Of a DNA stretch of 64,000 nt, positions 4,303 through 24,519 are shown piece by piece. A program made the translations under genes and the position numbers. The notes beneath the pieces were generated by a model that was not told the DNA's origin, did no database searches, and worked only from the letters and a program-made list of their open reading frames with translations. Origin of the DNA: an uncultured Coxiellaceae bacterium (GTDB lineage Bacteria > Pseudomonadota > Gammaproteobacteria > DASZBR01); the NCBI GenBank assembly GCA_964559315.1, contig CAZLGL010000010.1:7624-71623 (forward strand), given 5' to 3'. Position 1 is the stretch's first letter, and each line of letters opens with the position of its first letter.

Positions 4303-5217
4303 ATGAGTATTGAACGTAATCTTTCGCACTCAAATTTTAAACTAAAAAAAGAAAGCTCTCTTTTATTCGCGGTGATATTAACGCTTACTTTTCTTATCGT
4401 AGAAGTTGCAGGCGGGTTGATTACTGGCAGTCTTGCTTTAATCTCCGATGCGGCGCACATGTTAACCGACGTTACTGCGCTAGCTATTGCTTTTTTTGCT
4501 ATAAAAATTGCTCAACGTCCAGCAGATTCACTCAGAACATTCGGCTATTACAGATTTGAAATTTTAGCTGCTGCATTTAATACGATACTTTTATTTTTGG
4601 TGGCAATTTATATTTTATATGAAGCCTATCAACGGTTAAATTACCCACCAGAAATACACTCTATGGGAATGTTAATTATTGCTACAATCGGACTAGGTGT
4701 AAATTTGGCATCAATGCGTTTGTTAACTGCAAGTAACGATAAAAGTCTCAACATGAGGGGTGCTTATCTTGAGGTGTGGAGTGATATGGTGGGATCCTTA
4801 AGTGTCATCATCGGGGCTTTAATTATCCGCTTTACCGGATGGGCATGGGTTGATTCCATTATTGCTGTGTTAATCGGTTTATGGATTTTACCTCGCACAT
4901 GGATTTTGCTTAAGGAAAGTATAAATGTGTTACTAGAAGGAGTTCCGGAAAATATAGATTTAAAAAAATTGAAGCAAGCCCTTTTTACTGTTAATGGGGT
5001 ATTAGATGTTCATGAGCTTCATGTGTGGGCTATTACAACTGACAGAATCAGTTTAACTGCCCACGTCATAATTGACTCAAAACGTGATTGCGAAACTATT
5101 TTAATTAAACTGCGTAGACTTTTATCACAACAATTCAATATTGCACACACCACATTCCAACATGAAAAAACACATTGTTCTAAAGAAGGTGAAAAGTGTG
5201 ATTTTTTACACTCTTAA
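4303..5217 (+). CDS. czcD: Cation diffusion facilitator (CzcD/ZitB-like Zn/Co/Cd efflux)
   Basis: Shows GSLALISDAAHMLTDV and FGYYRFEILAAAFN TM motifs and a C-terminal cytoplasmic domain with HELHVWAIT. Lies directly downstream of czcA. Confidence 0.85.
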   Translation: MSIERNLSHSNFKLKKESSLLFAVILTLTFLIVEVAGGLITGSLALISDAAHMLTDVTALAIAFFAIKIAQRPADSLRTFGYYRFEILAAAFNTILLFLVAIYILYEAYQRLNYPPEIHSMGMLIIATIGLGVNLASMRLLTASNDKSLNMRGAYLEVWSDMVGSLSVIIGALIIRFTGWAWVDSIIAVLIGLWILPRTWILLKESINVLLEGVPENIDLKKLKQALFTVNGVLDVHELHVWAITTDRISLTAHVIIDSKRDCETILIKLRRLLSQQFNIAHTTFQHEKTHCSKEGEKCDFLHS

Positions 5218-5273: not shown

Positions 5274-5963
5274 ATGAAAAAAACATTTATTATCATCACT
5301 GTCGTCACACTAGCAGTTTTAGGTTTTATTGCTACGGGACACTTTTATAAAAAAGCACAGCCGCAAAGCACTATTGAAAACTCAACGACAATTGCTGTAC
5401 AAGCTGCAACGAATACCGAGGATAATTCGCTCGTACGGCCACATTCGCCTATCATTGGTCGGGCTGATGCACCCATAACAATTGTGGAGTTTCTGGATCC
5501 ATCGTGTGAAAGCTGCCGAGAGGTATTTCCCCGCGTCCATAAAATCTTGAAAACATATCCAAACGACGTCCGCCTGGTGGTACGTTATGCAGCTTTTCAC
5601 CGAGGATCTGACGTTGCAATTAGCATTTTAGAGGCCGCTAGAAAGCAAAATATGTTTGAAAATGTGCTGGCGGCTTTATTTGAAAAACAACGTTATTGGG
5701 CTACACATCCCGTGCCAAATTTAAATAGGGCTTGGGATATTGCAGAGGCTGCCGGTTTGAATATTCAGAGGGCGAAAGTAGATGCTGCAAGCCCAGAAGT
5801 CATAAAAATACTTAAGCAGGATGCAGCAGATATTAAAACTAACAATATTCGCGGTACACCTGCATTTTTCGTAAACGGCAAGCCCGTTCTTGTGCATGGC
5901 CCTACCGCATTAAGCGATATGGTAAATGGCGCTGTACAGGAAAATAAAAAAGAACGATCATAG
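5274..5963 (+). CDS. DsbA-family thiol:disulfide oxidoreductase, membrane-anchored or secreted
   Basis: N-terminal hydrophobic anchor MKKTFIIITVVTLAVLGFI. Thioredoxin-fold active site FLDPSCESCRE (CxxC). C-terminal GTPAFFVNGK is typical of the DsbA family. Confidence 0.8.
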   Translation: MKKTFIIITVVTLAVLGFIATGHFYKKAQPQSTIENSTTIAVQAATNTEDNSLVRPHSPIIGRADAPITIVEFLDPSCESCREVFPRVHKILKTYPNDVRLVVRYAAFHRGSDVAISILEAARKQNMFENVLAALFEKQRYWATHPVPNLNRAWDIAEAAGLNIQRAKVDAASPEVIKILKQDAADIKTNNIRGTPAFFVNGKPVLVHGPTALSDMVNGAVQENKKERS

Positions 5964-6110: not shown

Positions 6111-6260
6111 TATATATTAAGTAGCGATTCAGAAATCACGCGTCTTGTTGCAACGCCGATGATTAGTGGAATGAATAGTGATACGTTATTAACGTTAATT
6201 GTTATTCCTGCAGTTTATTTTTTGTGGAAGCAAAAATTTTTATTAAAGGGGGGAAGTTAA
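6111..6260 (+). pseudogene. 3'-terminal stump of a CusA-like RND pump gene (last ~50 codons only)
   Basis: The frame with codons starting at 6111 reads YILSSDSEITRLVATPMISGMNSDTLLTLIVIPAVYFLWKQKFLLKGGS*. This matches the extreme C-terminus of CusA-type pumps (..GSEVMSRIAAPMIGGM..LLSLFIIPAAY..W..) recalled from E. coli CusA. A stop codon at 6075 closes the frame upstream and no pump body is present. Confidence 0.6.
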
Positions 6261-6262
6261 AG

Positions 6263-6532
6263 ATGAGCGTAAAGAGACGCAGTGCAATTATTACAGCGAT
6301 TGTTGCGGGTTTAATGTCAAATGCAAGTTATGCGGATACATCTGCTATGTCTGGTGGTGCAATTCCAACGGCTGCTGTGCATTGTATGGGCATTAATAGC
6401 TGTAAAGGTATGGGGTCATGTAAAACAGCAACAAATGCTTGTAAAGGAATGAATTCCTGCAAAGGAAAAGGAATAATGAATACGACCACAGCTAAAGACT
6501 GTACCGACAAAGGTGGTACGGTTGTTCAATAG
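6263..6532 (+). CDS. Secreted 6-Cys peptide, bufferin-like (BufA2/DUF2282-superfamily-like) precursor, copy 1
   Basis: ATG at 6263 follows AAGGGGGGAAG (the GTG at 6224 in the ORF track is unlikely). Signal peptide is MSVKRRSAIITAIVAGLMSNASYA. The core is VHCMGINSCKGMGSCKTATNACKGMNSCKGKG..DCTDKGGTVVQ. It is a paralog of the ORF at 10014. Confidence 0.6.
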   Translation: MSVKRRSAIITAIVAGLMSNASYADTSAMSGGAIPTAAVHCMGINSCKGMGSCKTATNACKGMNSCKGKGIMNTTTAKDCTDKGGTVVQ

Positions 6533-6788: not shown

Positions 6789-8939
6789 TTAACGAAGTGA
6801 AAAATTCTGTATACCATCACCAAAGTGTAACAATCTTAATCCATTAAACACCACTAATAAACTTGCACCCATATCAGCAAATACTGCCATCCATAGTGTT
6901 GCAAATCCAAATAGAGCTAAAATGAAAAATATTGCTTTAATTCCTATTGACAGGCTTATGTTTTCAATCAGTTTGCGCCGAGTGCGTCGGCTAAGTGCAA
7001 CAAAAAATGGTAGCTTAATAAGGTCATCTTCCATCAAGGCAACATCTGCTGTTTCAAGTGCAATATCCGTTCCTGCGTGACCCATAGCAAACCCAATAGA
7101 GGCTTTAGCAAGGGCGGGAGCATCATTAATTCCATCGCCTACCATACCTACTGCGCTATATTTTTTTAAAAGAATATCAATAGCAGATAATTTGTCTTGA
7201 GGGAGTAAATTGGCTCGTATATTATCAATGCCGACTATTTTTGCGATAGCCTTTGCAGTAGTGGGATTATCTCCTGTGATCATTACGGTTGTGATACCTA
7301 GTTTATGAAGCCATTCAATAGCTGCTACACTTGTTTTTCTTACGGTATCTGTCACAGCTAATATGCCAAGTACTTTTTCTTGATTACCTAATACAATTGT
7401 TGTTTTTCCTTCGAGTTCTAATTTTTTTAAAATAGATTCTATTTTGGCGATGCATACTTTTTTCTCTTCAGCAAAATGATGATTACCTAAAAAATAAGGT
7501 TGGTCATTAATATTGCCTATAATTCCTCGGCCTGGGATAGTTTCAAAGTGCTCTACTGTTAATAAATTTTCTTTTGACGATAAAATTTTCCATTTGTTTA
7601 AAACAGCTCCTGCTACGGGATGTTCGGAATGTGATTCAAGACTAGCCGCAAGATGTAATAAAGTGTTTTCTGAAATTTCTGATAATTGCATGATATCCGT
7701 GACTATTGGTTTGCCAATAGTTAATGTTCCCGTTTTATCAAAAGCAATGGCCTTAAGTTTGTTCCCTAACTCTAAATAAGTGCCACCTTTAATTAAAACA
7801 CCATGTTTTGCTCCTGCGGCTAAACCACTCACAATAGTGACAGGAGTTGAAATCACTAGCGCACAGGGACAAGCAATAACTAAAAGCACTAGCGCTTTAT
7901 AAAACCATGGGTAAAATGGCAAGCTCAATAATAGTGTTGGGAGGGTTGCTACTAATACTGCTAATAAAACCATTATAGGAGTGTAGTATTTAGCAAACTG
8001 ATCAACAAATCTTTGGGTAGGTGCGCGTTCTGACTGAGCTTGTTGTACCGCTTTGATAATTTTTGCAATGAGTGTTTCATTGATTTCTGCGGTGACTTTA
8101 AATTCAAATGATCCACGTTCGTTAATTGATCCCGCAAACACGGTGTCACCTTCTTTTTTTTCTACAGGGATGGATTCTCCTGTGATAGGTGCTTGATTGA
8201 TACTGGATTGGCCTTTGGTAACTCTGCCATCGATAGGAATACGTTCTCCTGGTTTTACCCAGATAATATTATTTAATTGAACCTCATTAACTGGTTTAAC
8301 TTGCCATCCGTCTTTTGCTGTTTTCACTGTTGCAAAATCTGGAGTGATTTCCATTAATTGCCGAATAGCATGACGAGCCTTATCTAAAGAATAGCTTTCA
8401 ATCATTTCAGCTAGCGCAAAGAGAAAGGTCACCATCGCAGCTTCTGGCCATTCACCGATAATCATTGCGCCAATGATGGCTACCGTCATTAAAAAATTCA
8501 TATTGAGAGTAAAATAGCGTACCGCTTTGATTCCCTTGATGACGGTACTGTGGCCACCGATTAAGATTGAGGATAAGGCTAAAATAATAATTAAAGGAGA
8601 ATTTTCAGCGTGGGTAAGATAAGTGGATACTTCTGCAATAATGGCAAGCGCGCCCGAAACGCCCAATATAATCCAATCACGGAAATTTACATTTGACTGA
8701 AGTAAGTCGAGACTTTTCTTGGTATAGGAACCATTTTTAATTTCGGCTTTCATTCCTATTGAAATCAATGCTTGTTGAATCGCATTTACTTCAACATCTT
8801 GGTAGGTAACTGTTAATTCTTGTTTGATAAAGTTGAAATTTAATTCTAAAATTCCTGGTAAAGAGCTTAGATGATTTTTGATTGTTTTTTCTTCTGTTGG
8901 GCAATCCATTTGCGGTATTTGGAAGATGACTGTAGCCAT
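6789..8939 (-). CDS. P1B-2-type heavy-metal ATPase (Zn/Cd/Pb, ZntA/CadA-like)
   Basis: Motifs: CPC (VIACPCALVISTP), [17 protein letters not shown], and TM8 ADMGASLLVVFNGLRLL (the DxG signature of Zn-type pumps). The N-terminal metal-binding domain has IPQMDCPTEE. The probable start is Met at 8939 (MATVIFQ); the ORF-track extension to 9029 is unsupported. Confidence 0.85.
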   Translation of the reverse strand: MATVIFQIPQMDCPTEEKTIKNHLSSLPGILELNFNFIKQELTVTYQDVEVNAIQQALISIGMKAEIKNGSYTKKSLDLLQSNVNFRDWIILGVSGALAIIAEVSTYLTHAENSPLIIILALSSILIGGHSTVIKGIKAVRYFTLNMNFLMTVAIIGAMIIGEWPEAAMVTFLFALAEMIESYSLDKARHAIRQLMEITPDFATVKTAKDGWQVKPVNEVQLNNIIWVKPGERIPIDGRVTKGQSSINQAPITGESIPVEKKEGDTVFAGSINERGSFEFKVTAEINETLIAKIIKAVQQAQSERAPTQRFVDQFAKYYTPIMVLLAVLVATLPTLLLSLPFYPWFYKALVLLVIACPCALVISTPVTIVSGLAAGAKHGVLIKGGTYLELGNKLKAIAFDKTGTLTIGKPIVTDIMQLSEISENTLLHLAASLESHSEHPVAGAVLNKWKILSSKENLLTVEHFETIPGRGIIGNINDQPYFLGNHHFAEEKKVCIAKIESILKKLELEGKTTIVLGNQEKVLGILAVTDTVRKTSVAAIEWLHKLGITTVMITGDNPTTAKAIAKIVGIDNIRANLLPQDKLSAIDILLKKYSAVGMVGDGINDAPALAKASIGFAMGHAGTDIALETADVALMEDDLIKLPFFVALSRRTRRKLIENISLSIGIKAIFFILALFGFATLWMAVFADMGASLLVVFNGLRLLHFGDGIQNFSLR

Positions 8940-9159
8940 ATCACGCCCTCTAAAGTTAGTTGCTAAGCCACAGCTTACCTTTACGATACCCTTTATTAAG
9001 TGTAATTGATGAGCGATGAGCATAGCCATTTAAATTTTAAAATGAGCAAGGAAAGATCAGGTTAGCTTGCTTTGATAGAGTGATGCTAAAAAAGCTGAAC
9101 AAAATTAACGCACCACCCTAAGTAGAGTTCATTTTTTGTTCAACGAGCCCAATTTTTAT

Positions 9160-9840
9160 TTACAGATTAGCTGTTTTGTTCCGAAACCCTATCTTACTTT
9201 CACTTGCATCTGAACGATCTGAGGAGCAAGTAGTTGTTGCGCATGAAGCGCTTTTGCAACGTTTGTCATCTTGACTGCTTTTCCAGAAATAGCTTAAAAA
9301 TGAGGAAGGTTTCTTGTGAGACTCTGCAGTTTCAGTTGTTTGTAATTGTTGGCGATTTTCTGCAGAAGCTGCTGATTGGCTAGTAACAAGAGAAGCAGTT
9401 TGTCCTATTCGAGCAGCAGTTGTTGTACATATTCCACCGCAACATCCTCCTGTCATAGTTTGAGCACCTACCTGAACCATTTGTGCAACACTCGATGAAA
9501 TAACGGATTCAGAAACAGCAGCTTTCTGGCTTAATGGTGCTGAAAAATCAGTGGCGGGAGTTATATTCGTCTGACGAAAATAGCGAATACCTGAACTAAT
9601 TGCTCGACCAGTAGCCCAGGAAAGAGAAACATTAACCACCATTCCAACAGGATGTTGACGAACTTCATTTAATAAAATTTTACCTGTTTCGATGGGATGG
9701 TAAAGTGCGTAGGCCGTATCTTTGACGGTTTGAATAGGGTGTAACAAAAGTTTTTTCCAACCTGAAAGATAAAGTGTGCATCCATATTTTACTTCGTTGC
9801 CAACATAATAAAGGTAGTCAGTGTAATTTTGCTCAAACAT
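9160..9840 (-). CDS. Hypothetical protein with Cys clusters (GGCCGGIC and CKSASCATTTC); no signal peptide
   Basis: 226-aa ORF. It has a globular N-terminal ~100 aa followed by a Ser/Thr/Ala/Gln-rich tail carrying two Cys clusters. It is co-directional with and upstream of the Zn-type ATPase, and divergent from bufferin-like copy 2. I recognise no family. Confidence 0.5.
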   Translation of the reverse strand: MFEQNYTDYLYYVGNEVKYGCTLYLSGWKKLLLHPIQTVKDTAYALYHPIETGKILLNEVRQHPVGMVVNVSLSWATGRAISSGIRYFRQTNITPATDFSAPLSQKAAVSESVISSSVAQMVQVGAQTMTGGCCGGICTTTAARIGQTASLVTSQSAASAENRQQLQTTETAESHKKPSSFLSYFWKSSQDDKRCKSASCATTTCSSDRSDASESKIGFRNKTANL

Positions 9841-10013
9841 GTCTTGCCTCCTCTCATTAAAAGGGTTTACTAAAGATTAGATAGCTCGTATTCAGTTTAA
9901 CATGCTGCTCGAGTTGGTACCTTATCTCAAAATGGAGAAAGACTTTTTATTTATACGTAATTCTGTTAATTTATTTTTGTAATATCCACTTTTACCTCAC
10001 AAGAGACCATTTT

Positions 10014-10286
10014 ATGAGCATCCAAAGAAGACGCGCCATCATCGCTGCTGTTATCGCGGGTTTATTTGCTACCGAAAGTTATGCAATCGCTACATCATCA
10101 ACTCCTGTTCCAGTACCCACTGTAAAATGTATGGGCGCACATAATTGTAAAGCTATGGGAGCTTGTAAAGCGGGCGCGAATGGTTGTGGAGGAAAAAATG
10201 CGTGCAAGGCTGTCAATCCGAAAAGCATTGTCACCAATTTGTCTGCACAAGAATGTACAGATAAAGGCGGTACCGTAGTGCAATAA
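10014..10286 (+). CDS. Secreted 6-Cys peptide, bufferin-like precursor, copy 2
   Basis: Signal peptide MSIQRRRAIIAAVIAGLFATESYA. The core is VKCMGAHNCKAMGACKAGANGCGGKNACKA..ECTDKGGTVVQ. It has the same Cys spacing and the identical CTDKGGTVVQ end as copy 1. Confidence 0.6.
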   Translation: MSIQRRRAIIAAVIAGLFATESYAIATSSTPVPVPTVKCMGAHNCKAMGACKAGANGCGGKNACKAVNPKSIVTNLSAQECTDKGGTVVQ

Positions 10287-10333: not shown

Positions 10334-10365
10334 TTGACTTTAACCTTGGGGTTAAGGTTTATATT
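10334..10365 (+). promoter_or_regulatory. MerR/CueR-type promoter with long spacer and dyad operator
   Basis: TTGACT (10334-10339), a 19-20 nt spacer containing the dyad TTAACCttggGGTTAA, then TATATT (10360-10365). It lies ~55 nt upstream of the lipoprotein/copAB operon. The half-sites match the operator at 16422-16437. Confidence 0.6.
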
Positions 10366-10419: not shown

Positions 10420-10845
10420 ATGAAAATTGCTCTTAAAGTTAAGTTAGTGATCGGTAGTCTTTTTGTTTCAGTTCTTGCGGGGTGTGCATCAGTACCCCTA
10501 GACCCAGGTGCAGAAAAGGTTGTTTTTACGGCAATCACTGTACCTCAATCATGTAAATCATTGGGTCAAATTTCGAGCACTGATGTTAACGGCGTTACAA
10601 CCGCGTATACTTCTCACTCAAATTTACAGACAATGGAAATTAATGCTCTCAAAAATCGAGCATTGGCATTAGGCGCGAATGTTGTTGTTCTTACCGGCCA
10701 TCAAACGAAGTATGTGCCTGGATCGCGACGACAAGTTGATGACCATACATTAATAGGCAACGCTTATGTTTGTCCTGCGAGAGTTTTAAGTAAGTTACCG
10801 AATATGAATTCATCAAACATTTCGGATGCTCATGTAAGACACTGA
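10420..10845 (+). CDS. Lipoprotein (DUF4156-like)
   Basis: ATG at 10420 follows AAGGA. Lipobox is SVLAGC. The size and the C-terminal GNAYVCP pattern resemble DUF4156 lipoproteins (from memory). It is the first gene after the CueR-type promoter. Confidence 0.6.
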   Translation: MKIALKVKLVIGSLFVSVLAGCASVPLDPGAEKVVFTAITVPQSCKSLGQISSTDVNGVTTAYTSHSNLQTMEINALKNRALALGANVVVLTGHQTKYVPGSRRQVDDHTLIGNAYVCPARVLSKLPNMNSSNISDAHVRH

Positions 10846-10878
10846 TTTTTATAGGGAACTTTGCCAGAGGGAAGGGAC

Positions 10879-13350
10879 ATGCGACCAGAATGTAGAAAAG
10901 CTTTTAGTTTACTAATTAATGCTGTTATTTTGGTCGCCGGTTTCTTAAGTGCTCCAGCTGCTCTCGCGAATAATGTTGTAGTTAGATTGGATGTTGGTTA
11001 TAAAAATGTGAATTTTGCAGGGAAATCCATTCAGGCAATTGCAGCTAATAATCAAATTCCTGCGCCGACATTACATTTTAAACAAGGCGATACCGTAACT
11101 ATCAATGTATATAATCATTTGGATGTGGGTACAGCTATTCATTGGCATGGTTTGATTCTTCCGTGGCAAATGGATGGCGTTGAAGGCATTTCTCAAAAAG
11201 CTATTCCTCCAGGAGGAATGTTTTCGTATCATTTCACACTCTATCAATCGGGTACTTATTGGTATCACGCTCATGCAGGTTTTCAAGAACAGCAAGGGTT
11301 GTATGGTGCATTTATTATTGATCCATCTACGCCACATCTTAATAAATACACCAAAGATTATCCAATAGTTTTATCTGATTGGAGTAATACAAATCCGGAT
11401 AAAATATTGGCTAATCTGAAAAAAGATGGCGATTATTATTCTCCACGATTTCCAATGCAAGCATCGCTTGTGCGTTTTATTCGAGAATATTGGCATGCTT
11501 CACCTGAAGGGCGTAAACAATTAATCGAAGATTATAAAATGATGCAGAGTATGCGTATGAGTATCTATGATCTGAGTGATGTGGCTTATGACGCTTTTTT
11601 ATTAAACGGACAGACGAATAGCGCCCCATGGCAAGCATTGGTTAAAGTGGGCGATATCGTACGGTTACGTTTTATTGGTGCGGCTGGTAGTACTATTTAT
11701 CATGTAAAAATTCCGGGTACTTTAATGGAGATGGTGAGTGTTGATGGTAACAATGTAAGACCCTATATTGTTAAATCATTCACGATTGCACCAGGTGAAA
11801 CGTATGATGTATTAGTAAAAATTACTCAAAATCAACCGTATATTATTTATGCTGAATCGAAAGATGCGCTAGGTGCAGCAGAGGGCGCTTTAATCACAGA
11901 ATCTGGTCAACCGGTTGATTATGCTCATGTAAAACCTTTTTCTGAACCTGAGCCTGTTACTCGAGAAATGATGGATAACATGATGTCTGGTATGACAGAT
12001 CACAATAGTTCTAATTCAATGAGCATGGATAAAAATATGAATATGACAATGAATATGGATTCAAGCTCATCGCATGAGATGCATCATGGTATGTCTATGA
12101 ATATGGATATGCCCACGGAAGCTTCAATTATAGGAGATACAATGTCTCCGCCTAATTCTTTTCAAGCCACTACCTCAGGTACGAAATATCAAAACTTAAC
12201 TGCCGCGGTTAAAACAAATAATCCCCATAAACCAATAGCTGGAATTATTAGAATGCAATTATTTGGCTATATGGGACGTTATATTTGGTTCATCAATGGT
12301 GAGACTGAATTTAAAGCTAAGCCCATTATTATTGAACCCAATAAGCGATATCGCATTATATTTACGAATGATTCCATGATGAATCATCCCATGCACATTC
12401 ACGGGCACTGGTTTATTTTGCGTAATGGACACGGAGTTTATGATCCACTGTTGCACACTATTGAAGTAGCCCCAGGTGCTACTGCTGTAGCCGATTTTGA
12501 TTCAAATGCCAGTGGCCAATGGTTTTTCCATTGTCATCATCTCTATCATATGATGACAGGAATGGCGCGTGTATTTCAGTATTCAACGATTATTGATGTT
12601 GCAAAAGGTACGATGAAACCTGAAAAAGAAATTTCCCTTGGCACCTATGTTAATCAACCAATCGTCAGAGAAGATGAAGTTATGCCAATTGATACTTCAT
12701 TGATTCATCATCCCATGGCGCATGCTATGGGTTTATACCTTGCAAGCTTTTTAGACGTAGGCGAAGATCCTTTTGATAATGTACAAAAAGTTACATTTAA
12801 GGGTTTATACGGTAGTGACTATAACAAGCTTGAATTATTTACTAATGATGCTGAGGTCAATAAAGGGAGCATCAAAAATGCTGATATGGATATTTTTTAT
12901 TGGCATTTAATCAGTCAGTTTTGGGCAGTAAAGGGTGGCGTGAATTATGTTTATCGTCCTGCTGAACATCCTTATCTGCAACCGGGTATCGGAATCGAAG
13001 GATTGATGCCGTATTTTATAGATACAAATATTAGAACGTATTATCACGATGGAAGTGAGTCACTTGATGTTGAGTTATCACGTGATACGCAAATTACTAA
13101 TAACTTTTTTATCCGGACAGGTATTCGCAGTATTTTAGCCACCAAAACAGTGGCTGAAGATGAAATTGGCAGTGGGTTAAATCAAATGCGCTATATTCTT
13201 CGCCCGTATTATCGTGTTGCCCCTGGCGTAGATGTATTTAGTGAATTTGAAAGTGAGCATGATTATGGTGCATCAAGAAATATCGTTCAAAATGCGGGTG
13301 AATCATCCACAGAAAATACAGTAACCTTTGGTGTTTCAATTTTATTTTAA
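10879..13350 (+). CDS. Fusion protein: CopA/PcoA-type multicopper oxidase plus CopB/PcoB-type outer-membrane domain
   Basis: ATG at 10879 follows AGGGAAGGGA. MCO copper-ligand motifs are HWHG, WYHAH, HPMHIHGH and HCHHLYHMMTGM. There is a Met/His-rich insert (MMDNMMSGMTDHNSS..MHHGMSMNMDMP). The last ~230 aa match the CopB pattern (GIGIEGLMPYFIDT.., EDEIGSGLNQMRYILRPYY, terminal ..FGVSILF). No stop codon separates the two parts. Confidence 0.8.
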   Translation: MRPECRKAFSLLINAVILVAGFLSAPAALANNVVVRLDVGYKNVNFAGKSIQAIAANNQIPAPTLHFKQGDTVTINVYNHLDVGTAIHWHGLILPWQMDGVEGISQKAIPPGGMFSYHFTLYQSGTYWYHAHAGFQEQQGLYGAFIIDPSTPHLNKYTKDYPIVLSDWSNTNPDKILANLKKDGDYYSPRFPMQASLVRFIREYWHASPEGRKQLIEDYKMMQSMRMSIYDLSDVAYDAFLLNGQTNSAPWQALVKVGDIVRLRFIGAAGSTIYHVKIPGTLMEMVSVDGNNVRPYIVKSFTIAPGETYDVLVKITQNQPYIIYAESKDALGAAEGALITESGQPVDYAHVKPFSEPEPVTREMMDNMMSGMTDHNSSNSMSMDKNMNMTMNMDSSSSHEMHHGMSMNMDMPTEASIIGDTMSPPNSFQATTSGTKYQNLTAAVKTNNPHKPIAGIIRMQLFGYMGRYIWFINGETEFKAKPIIIEPNKRYRIIFTNDSMMNHPMHIHGHWFILRNGHGVYDPLLHTIEVAPGATAVADFDSNASGQWFFHCHHLYHMMTGMARVFQYSTIIDVAKGTMKPEKEISLGTYVNQPIVREDEVMPIDTSLIHHPMAHAMGLYLASFLDVGEDPFDNVQKVTFKGLYGSDYNKLELFTNDAEVNKGSIKNADMDIFYWHLISQFWAVKGGVNYVYRPAEHPYLQPGIGIEGLMPYFIDTNIRTYYHDGSESLDVELSRDTQITNNFFIRTGIRSILATKTVAEDEIGSGLNQMRYILRPYYRVAPGVDVFSEFESEHDYGASRNIVQNAGESSTENTVTFGVSILF

Positions 13351-13364
13351 AAGGAGCCTAGTTG

Positions 13365-13888
13365 TGAGTATTCTTCAAAAACTTTCTGTTTTAAGTAGTC
13401 GATTACAGCAGTTCTTTGTGAAAACCCCACAGAAAATACAAAAAACAGATGATTCTTTTGAATTATACCATCAGGACAAAATAGCGGCTGAATGGAAGCA
13501 ATGTCGTCAGGTTATTGTAGATAGCGCAAATCGATATTTACGTATGCATTGGGGAAAAGAAAGAGGATTTCTTTCAGTCTTAACCACTGGAGTTCAAGGT
13601 CATCAACGAGCACAAAGTTTAAAACAATTTGTGTATAGTCTCGATCTTTCGAATGCAAAAGGACAGCGTGATTTGATAGCTTCAGTTTCAGCTATTCGTT
13701 TGTCATCCTCAACGAATTTAACAGGCGAATTAGACCAACAGTTAAAAAGACTTAAGAGTAAGACATTCGATGTTAATCAGTTCAATTTAAATAAATTAAG
13801 CAAACGAGAACAAGAATTAAAACGTTTTTTTGACGGAAATATAAATCAACATACATCTCATCTACGTTCAAGGTTTGGAATACGATAA
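13365..13888 (+). CDS. Hypothetical protein, co-transcribed with the copAB fusion
   Basis: GTG at 13365 lies 6 nt after AAGGAG and 15 nt after the copAB stop. The product is basic and helical with no metal-binding motif and no signal peptide. I recognise no family. Confidence 0.45.
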
Positions 13889-13990: not shown

Positions 13991-14362
13991 CTACTGTGTA
14001 AAAATTAATTTCCCTCTATACATACCCATTTGACAGGTAAATTCGTACTCACCTGGTTGTTCAATAGTTAATTTAATTTCGATAGGTTTATTTAACGGTA
14101 ATTGTTTATTGATTTTTAATTTATCAAAAACGACAAATTCAGCGCACGGAGTCGCATCTTCACGAATGAATCTTAGCGTAATAGGTTGGTTCACGGAGGC
14201 GTTTATTATTGCCGGTTGGTATACGCCATCTTTAACTTTAATTTCAATCGTACCCGAAACTTTTTTAATGGATGTATTTTTTTTGTACAACCAAAACCAA
14301 CTTACGATAACAAAAATAAGTAATAAGCCACTAATATTAATCAGAACAATATTTGCATTCAT
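13991..14362 (-). CDS. Membrane-anchored cupredoxin-fold protein (Cupredoxin_1-like)
   Basis: N-terminal TM segment [17 protein letters not shown]. The C-terminal [17 protein letters not shown] is a Cys/Met copper-site-like motif. Its start overlaps the copA stop (ATGA), indicating translational coupling. Confidence 0.7.
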
Positions 14363-16377
14363 GCTTTTTGCTCTCCAAGATTCAAAAACCGTAGTCGATT
14401 CGCATTCATCACAACGGTTACAGACGATAATGCCATGGCAAGACCCGCAATCATGGGATTTAATAATAGTCCTGTAAGCGGAAATAGTATTCCTGCGGCT
14501 AATGGAATTCCAAGTACATTATATATAAATGCCCCGAATAAATTTTGTTTCATATTACGAACCGTATATTTTGAAATCAGTATTGCATCTGCAATACCCT
14601 GTAATGAACTTCTCATTAATGTAATAGATGCACTTTCAATTGCTACGTCTGTTCCACTCCCAATCGCAAAGCCCACGTCAGCACGTGCAAGAGCAGGGGC
14701 GTCATTAATTCCATCACCGACCATACCGACTTTTTTACCGCCAGTTTGTAATCGTGCTATAACATTGGCTTTATCTGCCGGTGATACCTCTGCAATGACA
14801 TCTTGAATGCCAACTTGTTTTGCCGTGAAATTTGCTGTCATTTTATGATCGCCAGACAATAAAATAATTTTTAAGCCCATTTTTTGTAATTGATCAATGG
14901 CTTTTGCTGAATCTGGTTTAACTTTATCTGAGACGGTAATAATTCCTGCAATTTTTTGATTTACCGCGAGATAAATTGGTGTTTGACCTCGTTGAGCGAA
15001 TGATTCGGCTTGTTGGATGATGTTTTCAAGAGCAATGTGTTGTTGTTCCATAAGTGCTTGATTGCCGAGATATATTTTTTGATTGTTGATTACGGCAATC
15101 GCACCACGGCCTGGAAGTGTTTCAAACTGATTCGTGGGCAGCAGAGCAATATTGCGTTCACTTGCAGCTTCTACAATTGCTTCAGCTAAAGCATGTTCTG
15201 AGCCTACTTCTACACTTGCTGCGAGTTGTAATAAAGTTTTTTCATCCCAAGAGTTCACCGGAAGAATTTCTGCCAAACTGGGTTTGCCAGTAGTGACAGT
15301 TCCGGTTTTATCTAGTACAAGAATTTGTAATTGACTGACTTGTTGAAGCGCATCGCCATGACGAATGAGTATTCCATATTCTGCGGCTTTTCCTATTCCT
15401 ACCATGACAGAAATAGGGACGGCCAATCCTAATGCACACGGACATGCAATAATTAATACAGACATGGCAGTGACTAATATATATGCAACGTTGGGTTCGG
15501 GTCCAAAATTAAACCAGATGAGGGCTGTTAAAATTGCGATAATCATGACAATAGGAACAAAGATAGCGGAGATTTGATCTGCAAGACGGGCTATCGCAGG
15601 CTTTGAGCTTTGTGCTTGTTGAACGATCTCAATGATTTTTGCTAAAACAGTATCCGAACCAATTTTTGTCGCTTTAAAAATAAAGGTTCCGGATTTATTT
15701 AATGTTGATCCAGTGACGATGCAGTTAACCGTTTTTTCAACTGGAAGTGGTTCACCTGTGAGCATGGATTCATCAATACTTGAATATCCTTCGATTAATA
15801 TACCATCTACGGGAATTTTTTCGCCGGGTCGTACACGCAGCATATCGTCAATCTGAACAGTTTCAATCGGGACGTCGATTTCTTGATTATTTCTGATAAC
15901 TCTTGCTGTTTTAGGTTGTAAACCAATTAATCGTTTAATGGCGGAAGACGTATTTTGACGCGCGCGTAATTCTAATAATGCGCCTAAGTTAATTAAAGTA
16001 ATAATGACGGCTGCAGCTTCAAAATACATGTGCCTTGCTAGTGGAGGAAAATAATTTGGAAATAATACAACACTGGCCGAATATAGCCATGCGACACCTG
16101 TTCCTAAAGCAATTAACGTATCCATATTGGCTTGCTGAATACGTAGTGCATTCCATCCGCCTTTAAAGAAATGACCACCGGAATAAATTAGGATAACTAA
16201 AGTAAGCGCGGCAATAACAAGATTTGTATCATGACCAGTTGAGATGTTTAGCATTGCCATGACAAAAAGTGGTATCCCGATTGCTCCGGCAAAAAGCGTT
16301 TTGTGTAGTAAACTGCGAGCGTAGCTATTTTCTTCATTTGTGGGGTTATCGCAGCTTGAGCAGGTGGTGGCTGTCAT
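14359..16377 (-). CDS. copA: P1B-1-type Cu(I)-exporting ATPase
   Basis: Motifs: CPC ([13 protein letters not shown]), [15 protein letters not shown], and TM8 [15 protein letters not shown]. The probable start is Met at 16377 ([12 protein letters not shown]). The longer ORF to 16530 would overrun the cueR start and the operator. Confidence 0.9.
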
Positions 16378-16411
16378 AGTTGGGGTTCCATATTGATGTT
16401 CGTTGGGGAAT

Positions 16412-16443
16412 ATTCTACATTTTAACCTTAAGGTTAAGGTCAA
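16412..16443 (-). promoter_or_regulatory. CueR-type promoter/operator for copA in the copA-cueR divergent region
   Basis: On the minus strand: TTGACC (16443-16438), a spacer holding the perfect 16-bp palindrome TTAACCTTAAGGTTAA (16422-16437), then TAGAAT (16417-16412). The 19-20 nt spacer is typical of MerR-family promoters. Confidence 0.7.
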
Positions 16444-16452
16444 GGACATTTT

Positions 16453-16866
16453 ATGAGCACTACACATTATACGATAGGAACAGTGGCAAAACGCTATGGC
16501 ATTACTACTGTCACGTTGAGGCATTATCAAAAAATCGGTTTACTTAAGCCTTCTTTTCGAAGCGATAATGGATATCGCGTTTATACAGAAGATGATATGA
16601 CACGATTACATTTTATATTAAACACAAAAAATGCAGGATTTACATTAGAGGAAATAAAGTCATTATTTTTGATGATTGACAATGGCGAGCCCAACAAAGC
16701 TGTAAAAAATCTCATCCATGAAAAGTTAAAAACTATACAAGAAAAAATACTGCATTTAAAAAAACTCACAACATTATTAGAAAATCTCGATAATGTTTGT
16801 CATAAACAAATGGCCGCGCGAGATTGCCCTATTATTAAACGATTAAGAGTTAATCCTTCTGTGTAA
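16453..16866 (+). CDS. cueR: MerR-family Cu-responsive regulator (CueR-like)
   Basis: N-terminal HTH is [27 protein letters not shown] dimerisation helix follows. The C-terminal Cys pair is [13 protein letters not shown]. It is divergent from copA. Confidence 0.8.
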
Positions 16867-18149: not shown

Positions 18150-18165
18150 ATAATTGTTATGTGTC

Positions 18166-18227: not shown

Positions 18228-18263
18228 TTCTGACAGTGTTGAATTAACAGTGAGGTTTTAGTG

Positions 18264-18701: not shown

Positions 18702-18760
18702 GAATGGGGTTATTTCAATTCTCCTAAACCTATAAATCAAAACTAAAAAGTGTTATAAAT

Positions 18761-21708: not shown

Positions 21709-21970
21709 TAGTAATCTCCTTCAAATTTATGATTTAAAGCACCTATAAAATAACAACGATAAAAGCCTAGAATGAAATATTTGTAAATGCAAACGATTTC
21801 GTATCAAAAACAACGGTGTGTGTTTTATAGAGAATTTTCGAGAACTTTATAGCCCAGTGTAAATACACTTGAGTCATTATTAATCAGTATTAACGGGTAT
21901 TATTCTATGTAAAATGATGTATTTAAATATTATGATAGGATTGTCTAAATTATTTAAAGGAGACGACCCA

Positions 21971-23113
21971 ATGATTAAATTCACGAAGCTAACCAGAGTG
22001 AACATTCGTAAACTCCAGTGCACAAAGAAAATCAGTGAGCACGGTATTGTTTTTAAACGGTTAAAAAATGGTGACGGGAAATATCTCATCAATATTATGG
22101 TTGATGGACAGCGAATCCATCGGCTAGTTGGGAAAGAATCCGAAGGGGTAGGGCGCCAAGAAGCTGAGCAGCTTATTTCAAAATTGCGTGAAGATGCTAG
22201 GCAAAATAGATTCAACCTTCCAAAAGGCCGAAAAATTATTTTAGGTTTTCGAGATGCTGCCGAAAAATATATTCAAAAATTAAGAGAGAGCGACGGCAAA
22301 GATATCGCAAGAAAAGAAGTTCGTTTTAAATTATATCTCTGTCCATTTTTTGAAAATAAACTACTTTCACAAATTAGTAGTTTTGATATTGAGCGTTACA
22401 AAAAAGCACGAGCCGAAACAAAAACTAAACATTCAACAATTAATCGAGAATTAGCTGGACTTTCGCATTTTTTGAATAAAGCAGTAGAGTGGAAATGGTT
22501 AGAACATAAACCGTGTTTAATTAAAAAATTCAAAGAAGATAACGGTCGAATAGTTTATTTAACCGTTGAACAAACAAGCGATATTCTTGAATCAGCGAAA
22601 AAAGATGAGTGCACATATATTTATCCATTTTTCATGATTGGTTTAGCGACAAGCATGCGGCGCATGGAAATTCTTTCTATCAAAATTGAACATATAGATT
22701 TTGATAAACGAATTATTTTTATTCCAGTAGCTAAAGCCGGAAAAAGAGAACAGCCAATGACAGAAAATTTGGCGAACTTTTTGAAAAATTATCTTAAAAG
22801 CACTTCTTCCGAACAAACTTGGTTATTTCCTGCAAAGCGTTCTTCTACTGGTCATGCAGTGAGTATTGAAAAAGCATTTAGACGAGTTGTTGTGCGAGCA
22901 GGTTTAGATCCGAAAGAAGTTGTGCGACATACATTACGACATACTGCAATTACGCATTTAGTTCAGGCGGGCGTTGATCTTCCTACGGTTCAAAGAATTT
23001 CAGGCCATAAAACATTACAAATGGTGGTTCGATATGCTCACCAAAATGGAGCGCATATCCAAGCGGCGATGGATAAGTTGGAGAAGAGGTATCAGTTTGA
23101 AGATGCGGCGTAG
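21971..23113 (+). CDS. int: Tyrosine recombinase / phage-type integrase
   Basis: ATG at 21971 follows AAAGGAG. An N-terminal SAM-like core-binding region is present. Catalytic motifs are MRRMEILS (Arg), HTLRHTAITHLVQAG (HxxR) and GHKTLQMVVRYAH (Tyr). Confidence 0.9.
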   Translation: MIKFTKLTRVNIRKLQCTKKISEHGIVFKRLKNGDGKYLINIMVDGQRIHRLVGKESEGVGRQEAEQLISKLREDARQNRFNLPKGRKIILGFRDAAEKYIQKLRESDGKDIARKEVRFKLYLCPFFENKLLSQISSFDIERYKKARAETKTKHSTINRELAGLSHFLNKAVEWKWLEHKPCLIKKFKEDNGRIVYLTVEQTSDILESAKKDECTYIYPFFMIGLATSMRRMEILSIKIEHIDFDKRIIFIPVAKAGKREQPMTENLANFLKNYLKSTSSEQTWLFPAKRSSTGHAVSIEKAFRRVVVRAGLDPKEVVRHTLRHTAITHLVQAGVDLPTVQRISGHKTLQMVVRYAHQNGAHIQAAMDKLEKRYQFEDAA

Positions 23114-23131
23114 ATATTCAGCTTATAATAA

Positions 23132-24259
23132 TTAGCTGTTGAAAATATCTACGTATCGTCGGTAAACAAAAGAACGTCCATATGTTTTGTGTTCATCTTT
23201 TAATTCTAATATCCCTAAATCAACGAAACGATCTATTGCTTTTTGCGCACCTTGACGCGTGTATTTAGTCCATTTTTGTATGTTCGCAATATTAACAATG
23301 GGTAATTTGTAAAGTTCGGATAAAATTAATGCTGTACTTTTAGCTGCGGGTCTTCCGAGAGCATGAATTTTTTTCATATCTTTTTCGCGCAGAGTAGTAA
23401 TTTTTTTAACGGTTTCAATCGCTTCTTGTGCAGTGTCTATGATTCCTGCTAAAAAGAAATCAATCCAATTTTCTGCTTTATTGCTATGATAATCCTCAAG
23501 ACGTGCGTAATACGTTTTTTGATGTTTTTTGAAATAAGAAGACAGAAAAAGTACGGGGCGATCCAGTAATTTTTCCAGCCATAGAAAAAGCGTAATTAGC
23601 ATTCTTCCTGTGCGACCGTTGCCATCTAAAAATGGATGGATGGTTTCAAATTGAGCGTGAATCATTCCCGCTTTTATAATGGGCAGAATATCGTCTTTTG
23701 TGTGAAAGAATTTTTCTAAATCTCCCATGGCTCGTATCATTTCGTGCGGAGGGGGCGGCACAAACAGAGCATCTTTTGGTGAAGTACCGCTGATCCAATT
23801 TTGTGATGTTCGAAAATTTCCTGGGTCTGAATAATGACTTGCTCGTGCATCTACCATTAATTCTTTGTGTACTTCTTTAATGACACGAAGACTCAAGGGA
23901 AAATCTTTCAGGCGTTCAAGACCATAATTGAGCGCTTGAATGTAATGTGAAATATCATCGACATCGGCTGGCAAATTTTCTGAAGTTTTTGATACAGCTT
24001 CAATGGCGTCGATCATTGTGGCGCGTGTGCCTTCAATTTGACTTGATGACGCCGCATCTTTGCAAAGATACATAAAAAGAAAAAAATCTACGTCAGGCAG
24101 GAGCTGGGTAATGCCGTCTAATTTTCCCAAAAGGAGGGTGGCTTGGCTCGCTTTCTGGATGATCTTTTTTGAAAAAGAGGTTTCTTCCTTGGGTGGGAAG
24201 GGAGCTGGAATAAAGGCTTCATACCCTTGGGGCTGCTTAATGTGGTGGCCTATGTTCAT
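23132..24259 (-). CDS. fic: Fic-family protein (AMPylase-type) with N-terminal inhibitory motif and C-terminal winged helix
   Basis: The Fic motif HPFLDGNGRTGR is present. The N-terminal SSQIEG fits the (S/T)xxxE(G/N) auto-inhibition helix. The C-terminal ..AQKAIDRFVDLGIL.. is wHTH-like. Confidence 0.85.
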   Translation of the reverse strand: MNIGHHIKQPQGYEAFIPAPFPPKEETSFSKKIIQKASQATLLLGKLDGITQLLPDVDFFLFMYLCKDAASSSQIEGTRATMIDAIEAVSKTSENLPADVDDISHYIQALNYGLERLKDFPLSLRVIKEVHKELMVDARASHYSDPGNFRTSQNWISGTSPKDALFVPPPPHEMIRAMGDLEKFFHTKDDILPIIKAGMIHAQFETIHPFLDGNGRTGRMLITLFLWLEKLLDRPVLFLSSYFKKHQKTYYARLEDYHSNKAENWIDFFLAGIIDTAQEAIETVKKITTLREKDMKKIHALGRPAAKSTALILSELYKLPIVNIANIQKWTKYTRQGAQKAIDRFVDLGILELKDEHKTYGRSFVYRRYVDIFNS

Positions 24260-24287
24260 GTCACCTCTCCGTTTGCATGTTTCGAAA

Positions 24288-24395
24288 GATGTAAACAGTT
24301 TATGTCATTTGGTTTACATCTTCAATAGGATGTAAACAGAAAGCAGGGGTCTAGTGGAAGAAGCGCCTGGCACGATTACACACAGATTACACACA
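24288..24395. repeat. Short repeated motifs between fic and the tRNA (candidate integrase arm sites or fic operator)
   Basis: GATGTAAACAG occurs at 24288-24298 and 24329-24339, with an inverted GATGTAAACC at 24311-24320. A tandem GATTACACACA x2 lies at 24374-24395. Confidence 0.7.
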
Positions 24396-24442
24396 GCCTA
24401 AAAATGGAGGAGGGGTGAATGACTCTAAGTGATTGATAAATA

Positions 24443-24519
24443 TGGTGGGCCCACCAGGACTCGAACCTGGGACCAAGAGATTATGAGTCTCCTGCTCTAA
24501 CCAACTGAGCTATAGGCCC
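24443..24519 (-). tRNA. ileX: tRNA with CAU anticodon, most like tRNA-Ile2 (lysidine type); elongator tRNA-Met not excluded
   Basis: The reverse complement is GGGCCTATAGCTCAGTTGGTTAGAGCAGGAGACTCATAATCTCTTGGTCCCAGGTTCGAGTCCTGGTGGGCCCACCA. It is 77 nt, folds as a cloverleaf and encodes CCA. The D-arm through variable loop (GAGCAGGnGACTCATAATCnCTTGGTC) matches E. coli ileX as I recall it. ileX also neighbours rpoD in E. coli. Confidence 0.85.

Follow-up and report, generated by a model that had tools for sequence, protein, structure and literature searches.

Gene content of the locus

The window (the whole 64-kb stretch of DNA analysed here) contains at 10014..10286 on the forward strand, stop codon included, a gene recognised from its ORF, its translation and a match to the profile NF050166 as encoding a 90-aa BufA2-like precursor, hereafter copy 2. 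An earlier sequence-only reading had presented this gene as a bufferin-like six-Cys peptide diverged from a nearby copy 1; the ORF and translation that it gave agree exactly with the sequence, and the signal peptide MSIQRRRAIIAAVIAGLFATESYA and the core with VKCMGAHNCKAMGACKAGANGCGGKNACKA running on to ECTDKGGTVVQ are present as quoted. The Cys residues of the precursor are at positions 39, 45, 51, 58, 64 and 81. A 24-aa signal peptide (10014..10085, +) can be read as an n-region MSIQRRR, an h-region AIIAAVIAGLFA and a c-region TESYA, with Ser at -3, Ala at -1 and no lipobox Cys, and is followed by a predicted mature core of 66 aa with all six Cys (10086..10283, +). Copy 1, an 89-aa BufA2-family paralog (6263..6532, +), sits 3.75 kb upstream of copy 2, and a DsbA-like oxidoreductase gene (5274-5963) lies beside it on the same island.

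The region immediately upstream of copy 2 (9861..10013, +), aligned over seven orthologous loci, holds a conserved AT-rich promoter-like block (...TTAATTTA..GTAATATCCACTTT...). A promoter scan of this region gave nothing strong, no MerR-type operator or dyad was found upstream of copy 2, and its Shine-Dalgarno sequence is weak (AGAGA; AGGAG in orthologues). A divergently oriented 226-aa ORF containing GGCCGGIC (9160..9840, −) follows further upstream; it has no Pfam or NCBIfam match and is conserved beside copy 2 in L001 and L010.

On the other side, 48 nt separate the stop codon of copy 2 from the -35 element of a MerR-type promoter (10334..10365, +; -35 TTGACT at 10334-10339, -10 TATATT at 10360-10365, spacer of 19-20 nt), whose spacer carries the dyad TTAACCTTGGGGTTAA (TTAACC-N4-GGTTAA, 10340-10355), so that copy 2 lies just upstream of this promoter and outside it, where the sequence-only reading had placed it. 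No terminator was found between copy 2 and the promoter, and the copy 2 transcript therefore probably reads through into the MerR-type operon as well. The first gene after the promoter encodes a DUF4156 lipoprotein (10420..10845, +; PF13698, E=5e-19) and is followed by one for a CopA::CopB fusion, in which a multicopper oxidase is joined to an outer-membrane CopB domain (10861..13350, +; Pfam Cu-oxidase_3, Cu-oxidase, Cu-oxidase_2 and CopB); this fusion protein scores 457.6 bits against TIGR01480 (copper_res_A). A second MerR-type operator, the perfect palindrome TTAACCTTAAGGTTAA (16422..16437), is located between a Cu P-type ATPase gene and a gene for a CueR-like, MerR-family metal-sensing regulator (16453..16866, +; Pfam MerR_1 and MerR-DNA-bind); the two operator sites found compare with 0.21 expected by chance. 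This regulator has only two Cys, C116 and C125, the latter within ...DCPI, and scores about 100-109 bits against each of the NCBIfam ZntR, MerR and CueR models, below their cutoffs. The promoter had been called CueR-type: its MerR-type nature is real, and CueR is plausible from the two-Cys C-x8-C-P-I loop, but the profiles do not single out CueR.

The island ends (21914..24519) with a tyrosine integrase gene (21914-23113, +), a Fic protein gene (23132-24259, −) and tRNA-Met (24443-24519, −), after which come core genes, from rpoD onward. Among the matches listed for rpoD in the GTDB representatives, identity reached 62% at best, and exact copies of the core proteins were absent from the collection. 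Copy 2 resides on this mobile tRNA-Met/integrase metal-resistance island. Identical copy 2 protein was found on further public contigs with the same neighbours. A tblastn search of a plasmid collection gave no match, and a metagenome scan with the subclade alignment, whose patterns were too unspecific, recovered only the already known L168 locus.

Family assignment and conservation of the Cys scaffold

Bufferins are a very large family of copper-sequestering RiPPs, discovered recently (2024). The sole family match of copy 2 in hmmscan was the NCBIfam model NF050166 (BufA2 bufferin-type metallophore; E=1.9e-12, 47.2 bits), and the alignment was full-length, with residues 9-88 of copy 2 set against profile positions 3-78 of 79. 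The curated equivalog cutoff of this model is 60 bits: copy 1 (80.1 bits) exceeds it, P0042, P0013 and P0090 score 70-78 bits, and copy 2 falls under it together with its whole subclade (41.6-51.2 bits for the other members), which lie below the NCBI annotation cutoff and are at present labelled 'hypothetical protein'. The profile search that had been proposed with the sequence-only reading thus returned a match that is significant yet below the curated cutoff, and, given this score, copy 2 is filed as a divergent homologue rather than a proven equivalog. A profile built from close relatives retrieved more than 6,000 homologues, some of them named BufA2 family metallophore by NCBI, and copy 2 was nested within Buf2 in both the alignment and the tree; together with the sole match to the BufA2 profile, this upheld the description as bufferin-like.

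The Pfam scan of the copy 1 and copy 2 peptides yielded only a weak match to DUF7640, below threshold, and no match of copy 2 to PF10048; one family member from the homologue search, P0112, has a precomputed PF10048 match. In the AF2 model of copy 2, whose confidence (pLDDT 59.5) is too low for judging geometry, the first strand carries Cys39 and the last helix Cys81. A Foldseek search of this model against the PDB returned nothing, and no match was obtained when PDB sequences were searched with the family profile.

The six Cys columns (C39, C45, C51, C58, C64 and C81) were invariant in an alignment of 53 sequences, the very comparison with homologues that had been put forward as a check. Across a wider family alignment of 85 sequences, five of the columns were complete (85/85) and the sixth was present in 77/85; within the 12-member subclade of copy 2 all six are invariant, as are the small-residue neighbours of the four central Cys. 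Moreover, dN/dS of copy 2 against six orthologues was 0.09-0.18 (with dS up to saturation), which, joined to the invariant columns, bears out the proposal of selection on a Cys scaffold. Copy 2 is a real gene under purifying selection. A pseudogene, a decaying copy or a chance ORF was ruled out by a dN/dS of about 0.1.

Compared with canonical Buf2, the subclade has CKG replaced by CKA or CKS (CRA or CRS at the second site), carries a 3-residue insertion after Cys-V and lacks the aromatic residue that follows KGxG after Cys-V. This divergence lies next to the residues modified in Buf2 and could mean that status as an MNIO substrate has been lost. The subclade is so far limited to one poorly sampled gammaproteobacterial lineage. 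Judged from profile, alignment and tree, copy 2 is a predicted precursor of the Buf2 (BufA2, Buf_6/12Cys) family, belonging to a divergent subclade of a known family.

The genomic contexts of the orthologues are partly shared. The gene order peptide, DUF4156, MCO-CopB recurs in L004-L006, where the orthologue comes second in an operon behind a MerR-type promoter (161-aa ORF, peptide, TPMT, three DUF4156, MCO::CopB, DUF2231 and Cu ATPase), so that synteny of the peptide with copper genes is found in two diverged lineages; the 161-aa ORF of the L004 type and the 226-aa ORF of the window are unrelated. Other orthologues stand in non-metal settings, among CsbD/BON stress genes in L003 and ankyrin genes in L168, and L169 has a mixed context. 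These settings, the lack of a Pfam match and the sub-threshold NCBIfam score would fit a peptide with no role in metal binding, either an unrelated Cys-rich secreted product such as a toxin, bacteriocin or effector, or a duplicate that has lost its function and is decaying. We regard such an origin as very unlikely, since homology to BufA2 is significant over the full length of the profile (positions 3-78 of 79), decay is excluded by the dN/dS of about 0.1, and the synteny with copper genes holds in two diverged lineages.

Origin of the two copies

Copies 1 and 2 are 51% identical. Common to both are RR at positions 5-6 followed by AII, A and AGL, the full set of six Cys columns and the ten C-terminal residues, CTDKGGTVVQ; the leader frame, Cys positions and C-terminal residues described as conserved between the copies were all recovered. 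In the tree, the clade of copy 1 is sister to that of copy 2, and both fall within the Buf2 family. Both copies are present in the closest MAG and the inter-copy dS is saturated; the duplication is therefore old, and copy 2 is, as had been claimed, a diverged paralog of copy 1. A copy-1 orthologue (MAG JANRJR01; L174) begins 3 nt after an intact OEP-MFP-RND operon. As a side observation, P0124 is a copy-1-like variant, and the island perhaps carries a third, unlinked Buf2-like gene; look-ups of P0124 and of copy 1 itself (P0016) gave no record.

Export of the peptide

Whether the arginines shared by the two leaders signal Tat or Sec export had been raised as a question. The leader of copy 2 has a positive n-region, an h-region of 12 residues with a mean Kyte-Doolittle hydrophobicity of 2.74 and no basic residue in its c-region and, on inspection, is a Sec-type signal peptide as expected for the Buf2 family; bufferin precursors carry Sec signal peptides, as shown experimentally (PMC11626156). 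In orthologues RR is replaced by RK, RN, KH, GK, NK or NG, and in the closest MAG the pair reads RK for copy 2 and RS for copy 1. Because RR is unconserved in orthologues and the h-region is strongly hydrophobic, we infer that copy 2 is exported via Sec and not Tat. The Tat route, by which the peptide would leave the cytoplasm folded or modified behind its RRR-containing leader, may draw on the loose agreement of QRRRAII with RR-x-hydrophobic-hydrophobic and on the good Tat-like motif (NRRKFL/NRRDF) of another Buf2-like subfamily. We consider it highly improbable in view of the variable RR positions, the very hydrophobic h-region with its c-region free of basic residues and the experimentally Sec-type leaders of bufferins (PMC11626156). 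Tat export was rejected since the twin arginine is unconserved. Taken together, copy 2 is very probably a Sec-exported, periplasmic, metal-binding peptide of the Buf2 family, and its most likely function would be that of a periplasmic copper-buffering peptide.

Linkage to MNIO and DUF2063 genes

Pfam scans and a home-made MNIO/DUF2063 HMM detected no MNIO (BufB, PF05114), DUF2063 (BufC, PF09836) or DoxX gene in the 64-kb window, and nine contexts of the lineage, covered to about 8-10 kb or to a nearer contig end, likewise had none. An adjacent MNIO and DUF2063 pair was present in 133 of 156 distant relatives (~85%), whose neighbour families were verified by Pfam, versus 0/9 here (Fisher p=1.4e-7). 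The whole branch formed by P0105, the copy-1 clade and the copy-2 clade is unlinked to MNIO. No other conserved cis partner was found either, the neighbours being TPMT in L004, a metallo-beta-lactamase in L168, CsbD in L003 and the 226-aa ORF here.

Stand-alone Buf2 genes have been described previously, and a sizeable fraction of family members is unlinked to MNIO (PMC12452194). A missing MNIO gene therefore lowers the confidence that copy 2 is a RiPP, not that it is a Buf2 homologue. For unlinked precursors the same paper proposes that the modifying enzymes come from another locus, and it leaves absence of modification open as well (PMC12452194). Among 864 complete genomes with Buf2 genes, none lacked an MNIO gene (PMC12452194). 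Within our own set, one MAG holds a pair of almost identical Buf2 genes, with linkage to MNIO at L016 but not at L020, and canonical bufA2-MNIO-DUF2063 clusters are present in Legionellales and Coxiellaceae MAGs. MNIO is widespread in Legionella, and an MNIO query taken from a Legionellales MAG returned Legionella-type maturases only.

Proposed mechanism

We infer the cleavage site, the disulfide and the copper binding of copy 2 within the following scheme. Transcribed from its own conserved upstream region, with probable read-through into the MerR-type operon, copy 2 would give a 90-aa precursor that enters the Sec pathway; signal peptidase I would cut it behind SYA(24), leaving a mini-protein of 66 aa in the periplasm. 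On the model of C. vibrioides Buf2, a disulfide would link Cys-I (39) to Cys-VI (81), and the central Cys, four in number, would serve as metal ligands. The peptide would sequester excess periplasmic copper, possibly also silver or other soft metals, working beside the DUF4156 lipoprotein, the MCO::CopB module and the island's Cu P-type ATPase.

The central Cys, if modified, would become 5-thiooxazoles through an MNIO/DUF2063 pair acting in trans from another part of the genome, as there is none in the 64-kb window or near the relatives of the lineage. Such modification in trans has about an even chance in our estimate, being favoured by the complete genomes (0/864 Buf2 genomes without MNIO), by the L016/L020 pair and by the Legionellales clusters. 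What counts against it are the sub-cutoff scores of the subclade, the diverged residues beside the modified Cys and the lack of an MNIO gene in cis. The scheme as a whole, in which a Buf2 precursor exported by Sec sequesters metal in the periplasm with its central Cys modified in trans, is our best explanation and in our judgement slightly better than evenly probable; against it also counts that copy 2 in the window is not behind the MerR-type promoter.

It is conceivable, at rather less than an even chance, that copy 2 descends from a RiPP precursor and is now unmodified, acting as an MNIO-independent periplasmic Cys-rich metallochaperone or buffer through thiolates and disulfides; copy 1 would then occupy a CusF-like slot after cusCBA, and copy 2 its place beside DUF4156-MCO::CopB. 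The linkage data speak for this (cis MNIO in 0/9 lineage contexts against 133/156 elsewhere in the family, the whole branch of P0105 and the two clades unlinked, and no maturase on the mobile island that carries the genes), as do the divergence beside the Cys modified in Buf2 with a score below the profile cutoff, the DsbA-like oxidoreductase gene (5274-5963) beside copy 1 and the copy-1 orthologue 3 nt after an RND gene, and the literature explicitly leaves 'not modified' open (PMC12452194). On the other hand, none of the 864 complete Buf2 genomes is without MNIO (PMC12452194), copy 1 is equally unlinked yet fully canonical in sequence (80 bits), the four central Cys and their small-residue neighbours are invariant as in true substrates, and in Caulobacter the heterocycles are required for copper binding (PMC11626156). 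More speculatively, and on balance doubtful, a lineage of bufferin precursors may have been freed of its MNIO maturase and exapted as an unmodified metallochaperone that spreads as cargo of copper/silver islands, with one paralog as the fourth gene of a cusCBA-like operon and the other wired to the MerR-controlled DUF4156/MCO::CopB genes. If true, this would document a RiPP precursor family evolving back to a conventional protein.

Significance

The discoverers of the bufferins raised the question of what role is played by the numerous precursor genes that have no MNIO maturase beside them. This locus is a clean test case, in which a single mobile metal-resistance island bears two, perhaps three, Buf2-like genes unlinked to MNIO. 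Copy 1 is canonical and copy 2 divergent, both are wired into copper/metal efflux operons, and within their lineage all known relatives are unlinked too. Should the peptides be modified in trans, as in our preferred scheme, MNIO maturases serve dispersed regulons; should they be unmodified, the Cys scaffold has a role in metal binding that needs no maturase. Stand-alone Buf2-type genes are already known, and copy 2 is a new divergent member.

Comparison with known systems

Copy 2 resembles the Buf2/BufA2 bufferins (Caulobacter vibrioides CCNA_03001, L. pneumophila WP_010947964; PMC11626156, PMC12452194; NF050166) in its precursor of ~90 aa, Sec-type leader, six-Cys spacing, C-terminal C-T-D-K-G-G-x-V motif and copper-stress genomic setting. 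It differs from them in its profile score (47 vs 60 bits), the CKA/CKS (CRA/CRS) motifs, the insertion and the lost aromatic residue after Cys-V, and also in having no bufB/bufC within 64 kb and in being carried on a tRNA-Met integrative island. The stand-alone bufferin precursors (PMC12452194, Fig. 3) are, like copy 2, unlinked to MNIO, and Legionella genomes are an extreme example of multiple precursors (PMC12452194). Here, in contrast, MNIO linkage is lacking throughout an entire sub-lineage, made up of P0105 and the clades of copies 1 and 2, and its genes sit inside MerR/MCO::CopB and RND efflux operons. This association is not reported in that paper, which gives extremely low proportions for other conserved genes (PMC12452194).

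Buf1 (DUF2282, PF10048) and the gig operons follow the same logic of a Sec-exported, Cys-containing, periplasmic copper-binding RiPP with MNIO and DUF2063, but Buf1 differs from the six-Cys copy 2 in its number of Cys (four) and in its profile. The CusF metallochaperones (cusCFBA) are alike as small Sec-exported periplasmic proteins at a heavy-metal RND operon, which is a functional analogy only: CusF has no sequence or fold relationship to copy 2, and its ligands are Met, His and Trp, not Cys.

A six-cysteine peptide gene and its diverged paralog

The interval 10014-10286 (+) holds an intact ORF of 90 codons, and translation of the window ORF showed that the peptide given for it in the sequence-only reading was exact. 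Its paralog, copy 1 (6263-6532, +; 89 aa), is 51% identical to this peptide (copy 2), and the features that had been proposed as common to both were all recovered, namely the leader frame (RR, AII, A, AGL), the six Cys columns and the final ten residues CTDKGGTVVQ. Against orthologues from six other loci, copy 2 gave a dN/dS of 0.09-0.18, with dS ranging from 0.33 to saturation, and independent public contigs carry a protein identical to copy 2 in the same gene neighbourhood. Copy 2 is a real gene. Antisense ORFs of 52 and 61 aa inside the same interval had no support.

In a neighbour-joining tree of the core, whose resolution was low because the peptide is short, the copy-1 clade was sister to the copy-2 clade and nested among canonical Buf2 members. 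The closest MAG, JANRJR01, has both copies, and dS between copy 1 and copy 2 was saturated, so the duplication is old. A third copy-1-like peptide (P0124; 89 aa, nine differences from copy 1) was found on a record from an NCBI contig; a third paralog may lie in the island, within the 16.5 kb of source contig beyond the window.

Copy 2 belongs to a subclade below the annotation threshold

Pfam scanning of both peptides returned nothing above cutoff, with only a weak DUF7640 match (17.7 bits, vs a 28.1-bit cutoff). The sole NCBIfam match for both was NF050166, 'BufA2 family periplasmic bufferin-type metallophore', which copy 1 matched with 80.1 bits, above the 60-bit cutoff, and copy 2 with 47.2 bits (E=1.9e-12), a significant, full-length match below that cutoff; copy 2 can thus be called bufferin-like, as had been proposed, though its score is sub-cutoff. 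All tested members of the copy-2 subclade were likewise sub-cutoff (41.6-51.2 bits), while more distant canonical members passed (70-78 bits), which is why the MAG orthologues of copy 2 are named 'hypothetical protein' at NCBI.

A profile made from close relatives retrieved at least 6,194 proteins at E<=1e-6, some of them named BufA2 by NCBI. Consistently with the expected conservation of the Cys columns across homologues, all six were invariant in a 53-sequence alignment; among 85 peptides from genomic loci, five columns were complete and the sixth was kept in 77. The residues around them set the subclade apart: canonical Buf2 has CKG after Cys-II and Cys-V, whereas the copy-2 subclade has CKA/CKS (CRA/CRS at the second site), three extra residues inserted after Cys-V, and lacks the aromatic residue of the canonical KGxG[WFY] motif. 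When 185,579 species representatives were scanned with a clade-specific pattern, the subclade appeared in two MAGs only, both labelled 'Gammaproteobacteria bacterium'.

Export route

The copy 2 leader combines a positive n-region, a 12-residue h-region (mean Kyte-Doolittle 2.74) and an S-Y-A cleavage motif, with no lipobox. Its twin-arginine positions read RK, RN, KH, GK, NK or NG in orthologues, and RR was present among the 85 family members only in the two window genes and one unrelated subfamily. Since RR is unconserved and bufferins have been experimentally assigned to Sec (PMC11626156), and given these leader features, Sec export is the best reading for copy 2. The unrelated RR subfamily (loci L029, L045, L051, L053, L065 and L081) consists of MNIO-linked Buf2-like peptides with CKGxGGC repeats, including 12-Cys tandem forms, and carries a convincing Tat-like NRRKFL/NRRDF motif, so some bufferin-like precursors may use Tat instead of Sec.

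A metal-resistance island surrounds both copies

A Pfam scan of every window ORF of at least 110 aa delimited a metal-resistance island from position 1 to ~24.5 kb, followed by core genes, rpoD first. Upstream of copy 1 lie a CusB-like membrane-fusion protein (115-1056), a CusA/CzcA RND pump (1072-4272), a CDF transporter (4303-5217) and a DsbA-like thioredoxin (5274-5963). Between the copies are a Zn/Cd-type P-ATPase (6789-9029, -) and a 226-aa ORF without family match (9160-9840, -). That ORF includes GGCCGGIC, has more Cys in a Ser/Thr-rich tail, and is conserved beside copy 2, in divergent orientation, in the window and in loci L001 and L010. Beyond copy 2 follow a DUF4156 lipoprotein (10420-10845, +), a multicopper oxidase (MCO) fused to CopB (10861-13350, +), an ORF of unknown family (13328-13888), a cupredoxin (13991-14362, -), a Cu-type P-ATPase (14359-16530, -), a MerR-family regulator (16453-16866, +), ArsM-like, ArsC and ArsR genes (17157-19099), DUF3987 (19697-21193, -), a tyrosine integrase (21914-23113, +), Fic (23132-24259, -) and a tRNA-Met (24443-24519, -). 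The CopA-type MCO and CopB form one 829-aa ORF, with the CopB outer-membrane domain at residues 643-829; a JGI relative has the same fusion (836 aa, L004 12577-15087). In JANRJR01, the island carries at its far end a 55-nt stretch (L174 124-178) identical to window 24433-24487 in the tRNA-Met region, as would be expected for the att repeat of an integrative element.

Further along the window, four large ORFs (631, 410, 665 and 1,781 aa; 28604-33912 and 46835-52180, -) had no Pfam match. Taken with the ankyrin-rich surroundings seen in relatives (L168), they suggest that the bacterium is intracellular and Legionellales-like and carries effector-like genes. One 718-aa ORF (35296-37452) joins HMG-CoA reductase and GHMP-kinase domains and adjoins a NUDIX gene, which points to a mevalonate-pathway gene fusion.

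The copper link is recurrent

A gap of 48 nt separates the end of copy 2 from the -35 element (TTGACT, 10334-10339) of a MerR-type promoter, so that the gene lies upstream of and outside the promoter, as the sequence-only reading had placed it; the spacer of 19-20 nt, which holds the dyad TTAACC-N4-GGTTAA (10340-10355), is followed by the -10 element TATATT. The operator recurs just once elsewhere in the window, as a perfect palindrome (16422-16437) flanked by the Cu-type P-ATPase and the MerR gene (two sites found vs 0.21 expected by chance). The promoter had been called CueR-type: its MerR-type architecture was found, but NCBIfam did not assign the regulator's metal, the ZntR, MerR and CueR models all scoring ~100-109 bits, below cutoffs. 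The regulator has two Cys only (C116 and C125, ending DCPI), in a C-x8-C-P-I loop, and none where the dimerisation helix begins, a pattern that we take to be of the CueR (monovalent-ion) type; it would fit a divergent, CueR-like sensor of monovalent metals.

No terminator was found between copy 2 and this promoter, and read-through is therefore possible. Upstream of copy 2 itself, an AT-rich promoter-like block and a Shine-Dalgarno sequence are conserved with orthologues, and no MerR dyad was present. On three JGI contigs (L004-L006), a copy-2 orthologue (67% identical by BLASTP) is the second gene of a MerR-promoter operon (TTGACC, 19 nt holding an ACCTT...AAGGT dyad, then TAAGAT), followed by a thiopurine-type methyltransferase, three DUF4156 genes, the MCO::CopB fusion, DUF2231 and a Cu ATPase. 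In JANRJR01, an intact OEP-MFP-RND operon (L174 436-6270) is followed, 3 nt past its stop codon, by the start of the copy-1 orthologue, which forms a fourth operon gene in a CusF-like position; in the window, a ~120-nt remnant of the RND gene 3' end (6128-6248; ...LTLIVIPAVYFLWKQKF...) lies directly upstream of copy 1. Since other orthologues lie among non-metal genes, as in L003 (CsbD/BON stress genes) and L168 (ankyrin-repeat genes), with L169 mixed, the copper link is recurrent, not universal.

A lineage without linked maturase genes

In Caulobacter BufA2, a Sec signal peptide precedes a core of 61 residues that contains six Cys. Modification spares Cys-I and Cys-VI, which likely pair in a disulfide, and the central Cys show -4 Da shifts interpreted as 5-thiooxazoles (PMC11626156). 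Gene inactivation and in vitro reconstitution showed that BufB1 (MNIO) and BufC1 (DUF2063) are required and sufficient for the BufA1 modifications; the buf2 cluster has a homologue of each, copper binding needs the heterocycles, and bufferins aid growth under copper stress (PMC11626156).

Neither MNIO, DUF2063 nor DoxX was found by Pfam among ORFs of at least 110 aa in the whole 64-kb window. For comparison, we clustered the neighbour ORFs of 156 loci of distant family members from GTDB representative genomes and made an HMM from the dominant neighbour cluster; the dominant neighbours were verified by Pfam as PF05114 (MNIO) and PF09836 (DUF2063), and the HMM had no match in the window. Of the 156 loci, 133 had such a gene no more than a few kb away from the peptide gene, in most cases immediately downstream, and in several of the 23 exceptions contig ends cut the context off. 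The window's lineage had MNIO in none of nine distinct contexts (window copy 2, equal to L001; window copy 1; the copy-1 orthologue in L174; two L003 sites; L004-L006; L168; L169/L170; and the next outgroup, P0105 in L171), with fetched flanks of up to 8-10 kb, less at contig ends (for L003 site a, one flank was about 1.9 kb). The difference gave a Fisher p=1.4e-7, on contexts that are phylogenetically non-independent.

This consistent lack of MNIO linkage across the lineage favours a peptide that works unmodified, as do a mobile island carrying its genes without a maturase, the divergence of the subclade at positions flanking the Cys modified in Buf2, and the DsbA-like gene on the same island; we consider unmodified function a real possibility, short of an even chance. 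Modification in trans, to which we give about even chances, is favoured because none of 864 Buf2-positive complete genomes lacks an MNIO gene (PMC12452194), because the central Cys and their small neighbours stay conserved, and because canonical bufA2-MNIO-DUF2063 clusters are present in Legionellales and Coxiellaceae MAGs. It is also favoured by one MAG, DASRAN01, with two near-identical Buf2 genes, one followed by MNIO (L016 4936-5220) and one without MNIO within 10 kb (L020 9992-10276), a natural example of what is probably a trans substrate.

In the most likely picture, copy 2 would be exported by Sec to give a periplasmic mini-protein of 66 aa, in which a disulfide joins Cys-I to Cys-VI and the ligands derive from the four central Cys. 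Its role would be to buffer copper, or some other soft metal, while the island also provides oxidase, efflux and P-ATPase functions.

Relation to known bufferins

Bufferins were first described in 2024 (PMC11626156), and the Buf2 family, known since then and since covered by an NCBIfam model, is not new. Legionella genomes are extreme for multiple precursors and maturases, and unlinked precursors, Legionella included, have already been described with the same two explanations (PMC12452194). What copy 2 and its relatives add is modest: a divergent subclade under the annotation threshold, and an entire sub-lineage that is consistently maturase-unlinked and wired into MerR/DUF4156/MCO::CopB and RND operons on a tRNA-Met island.
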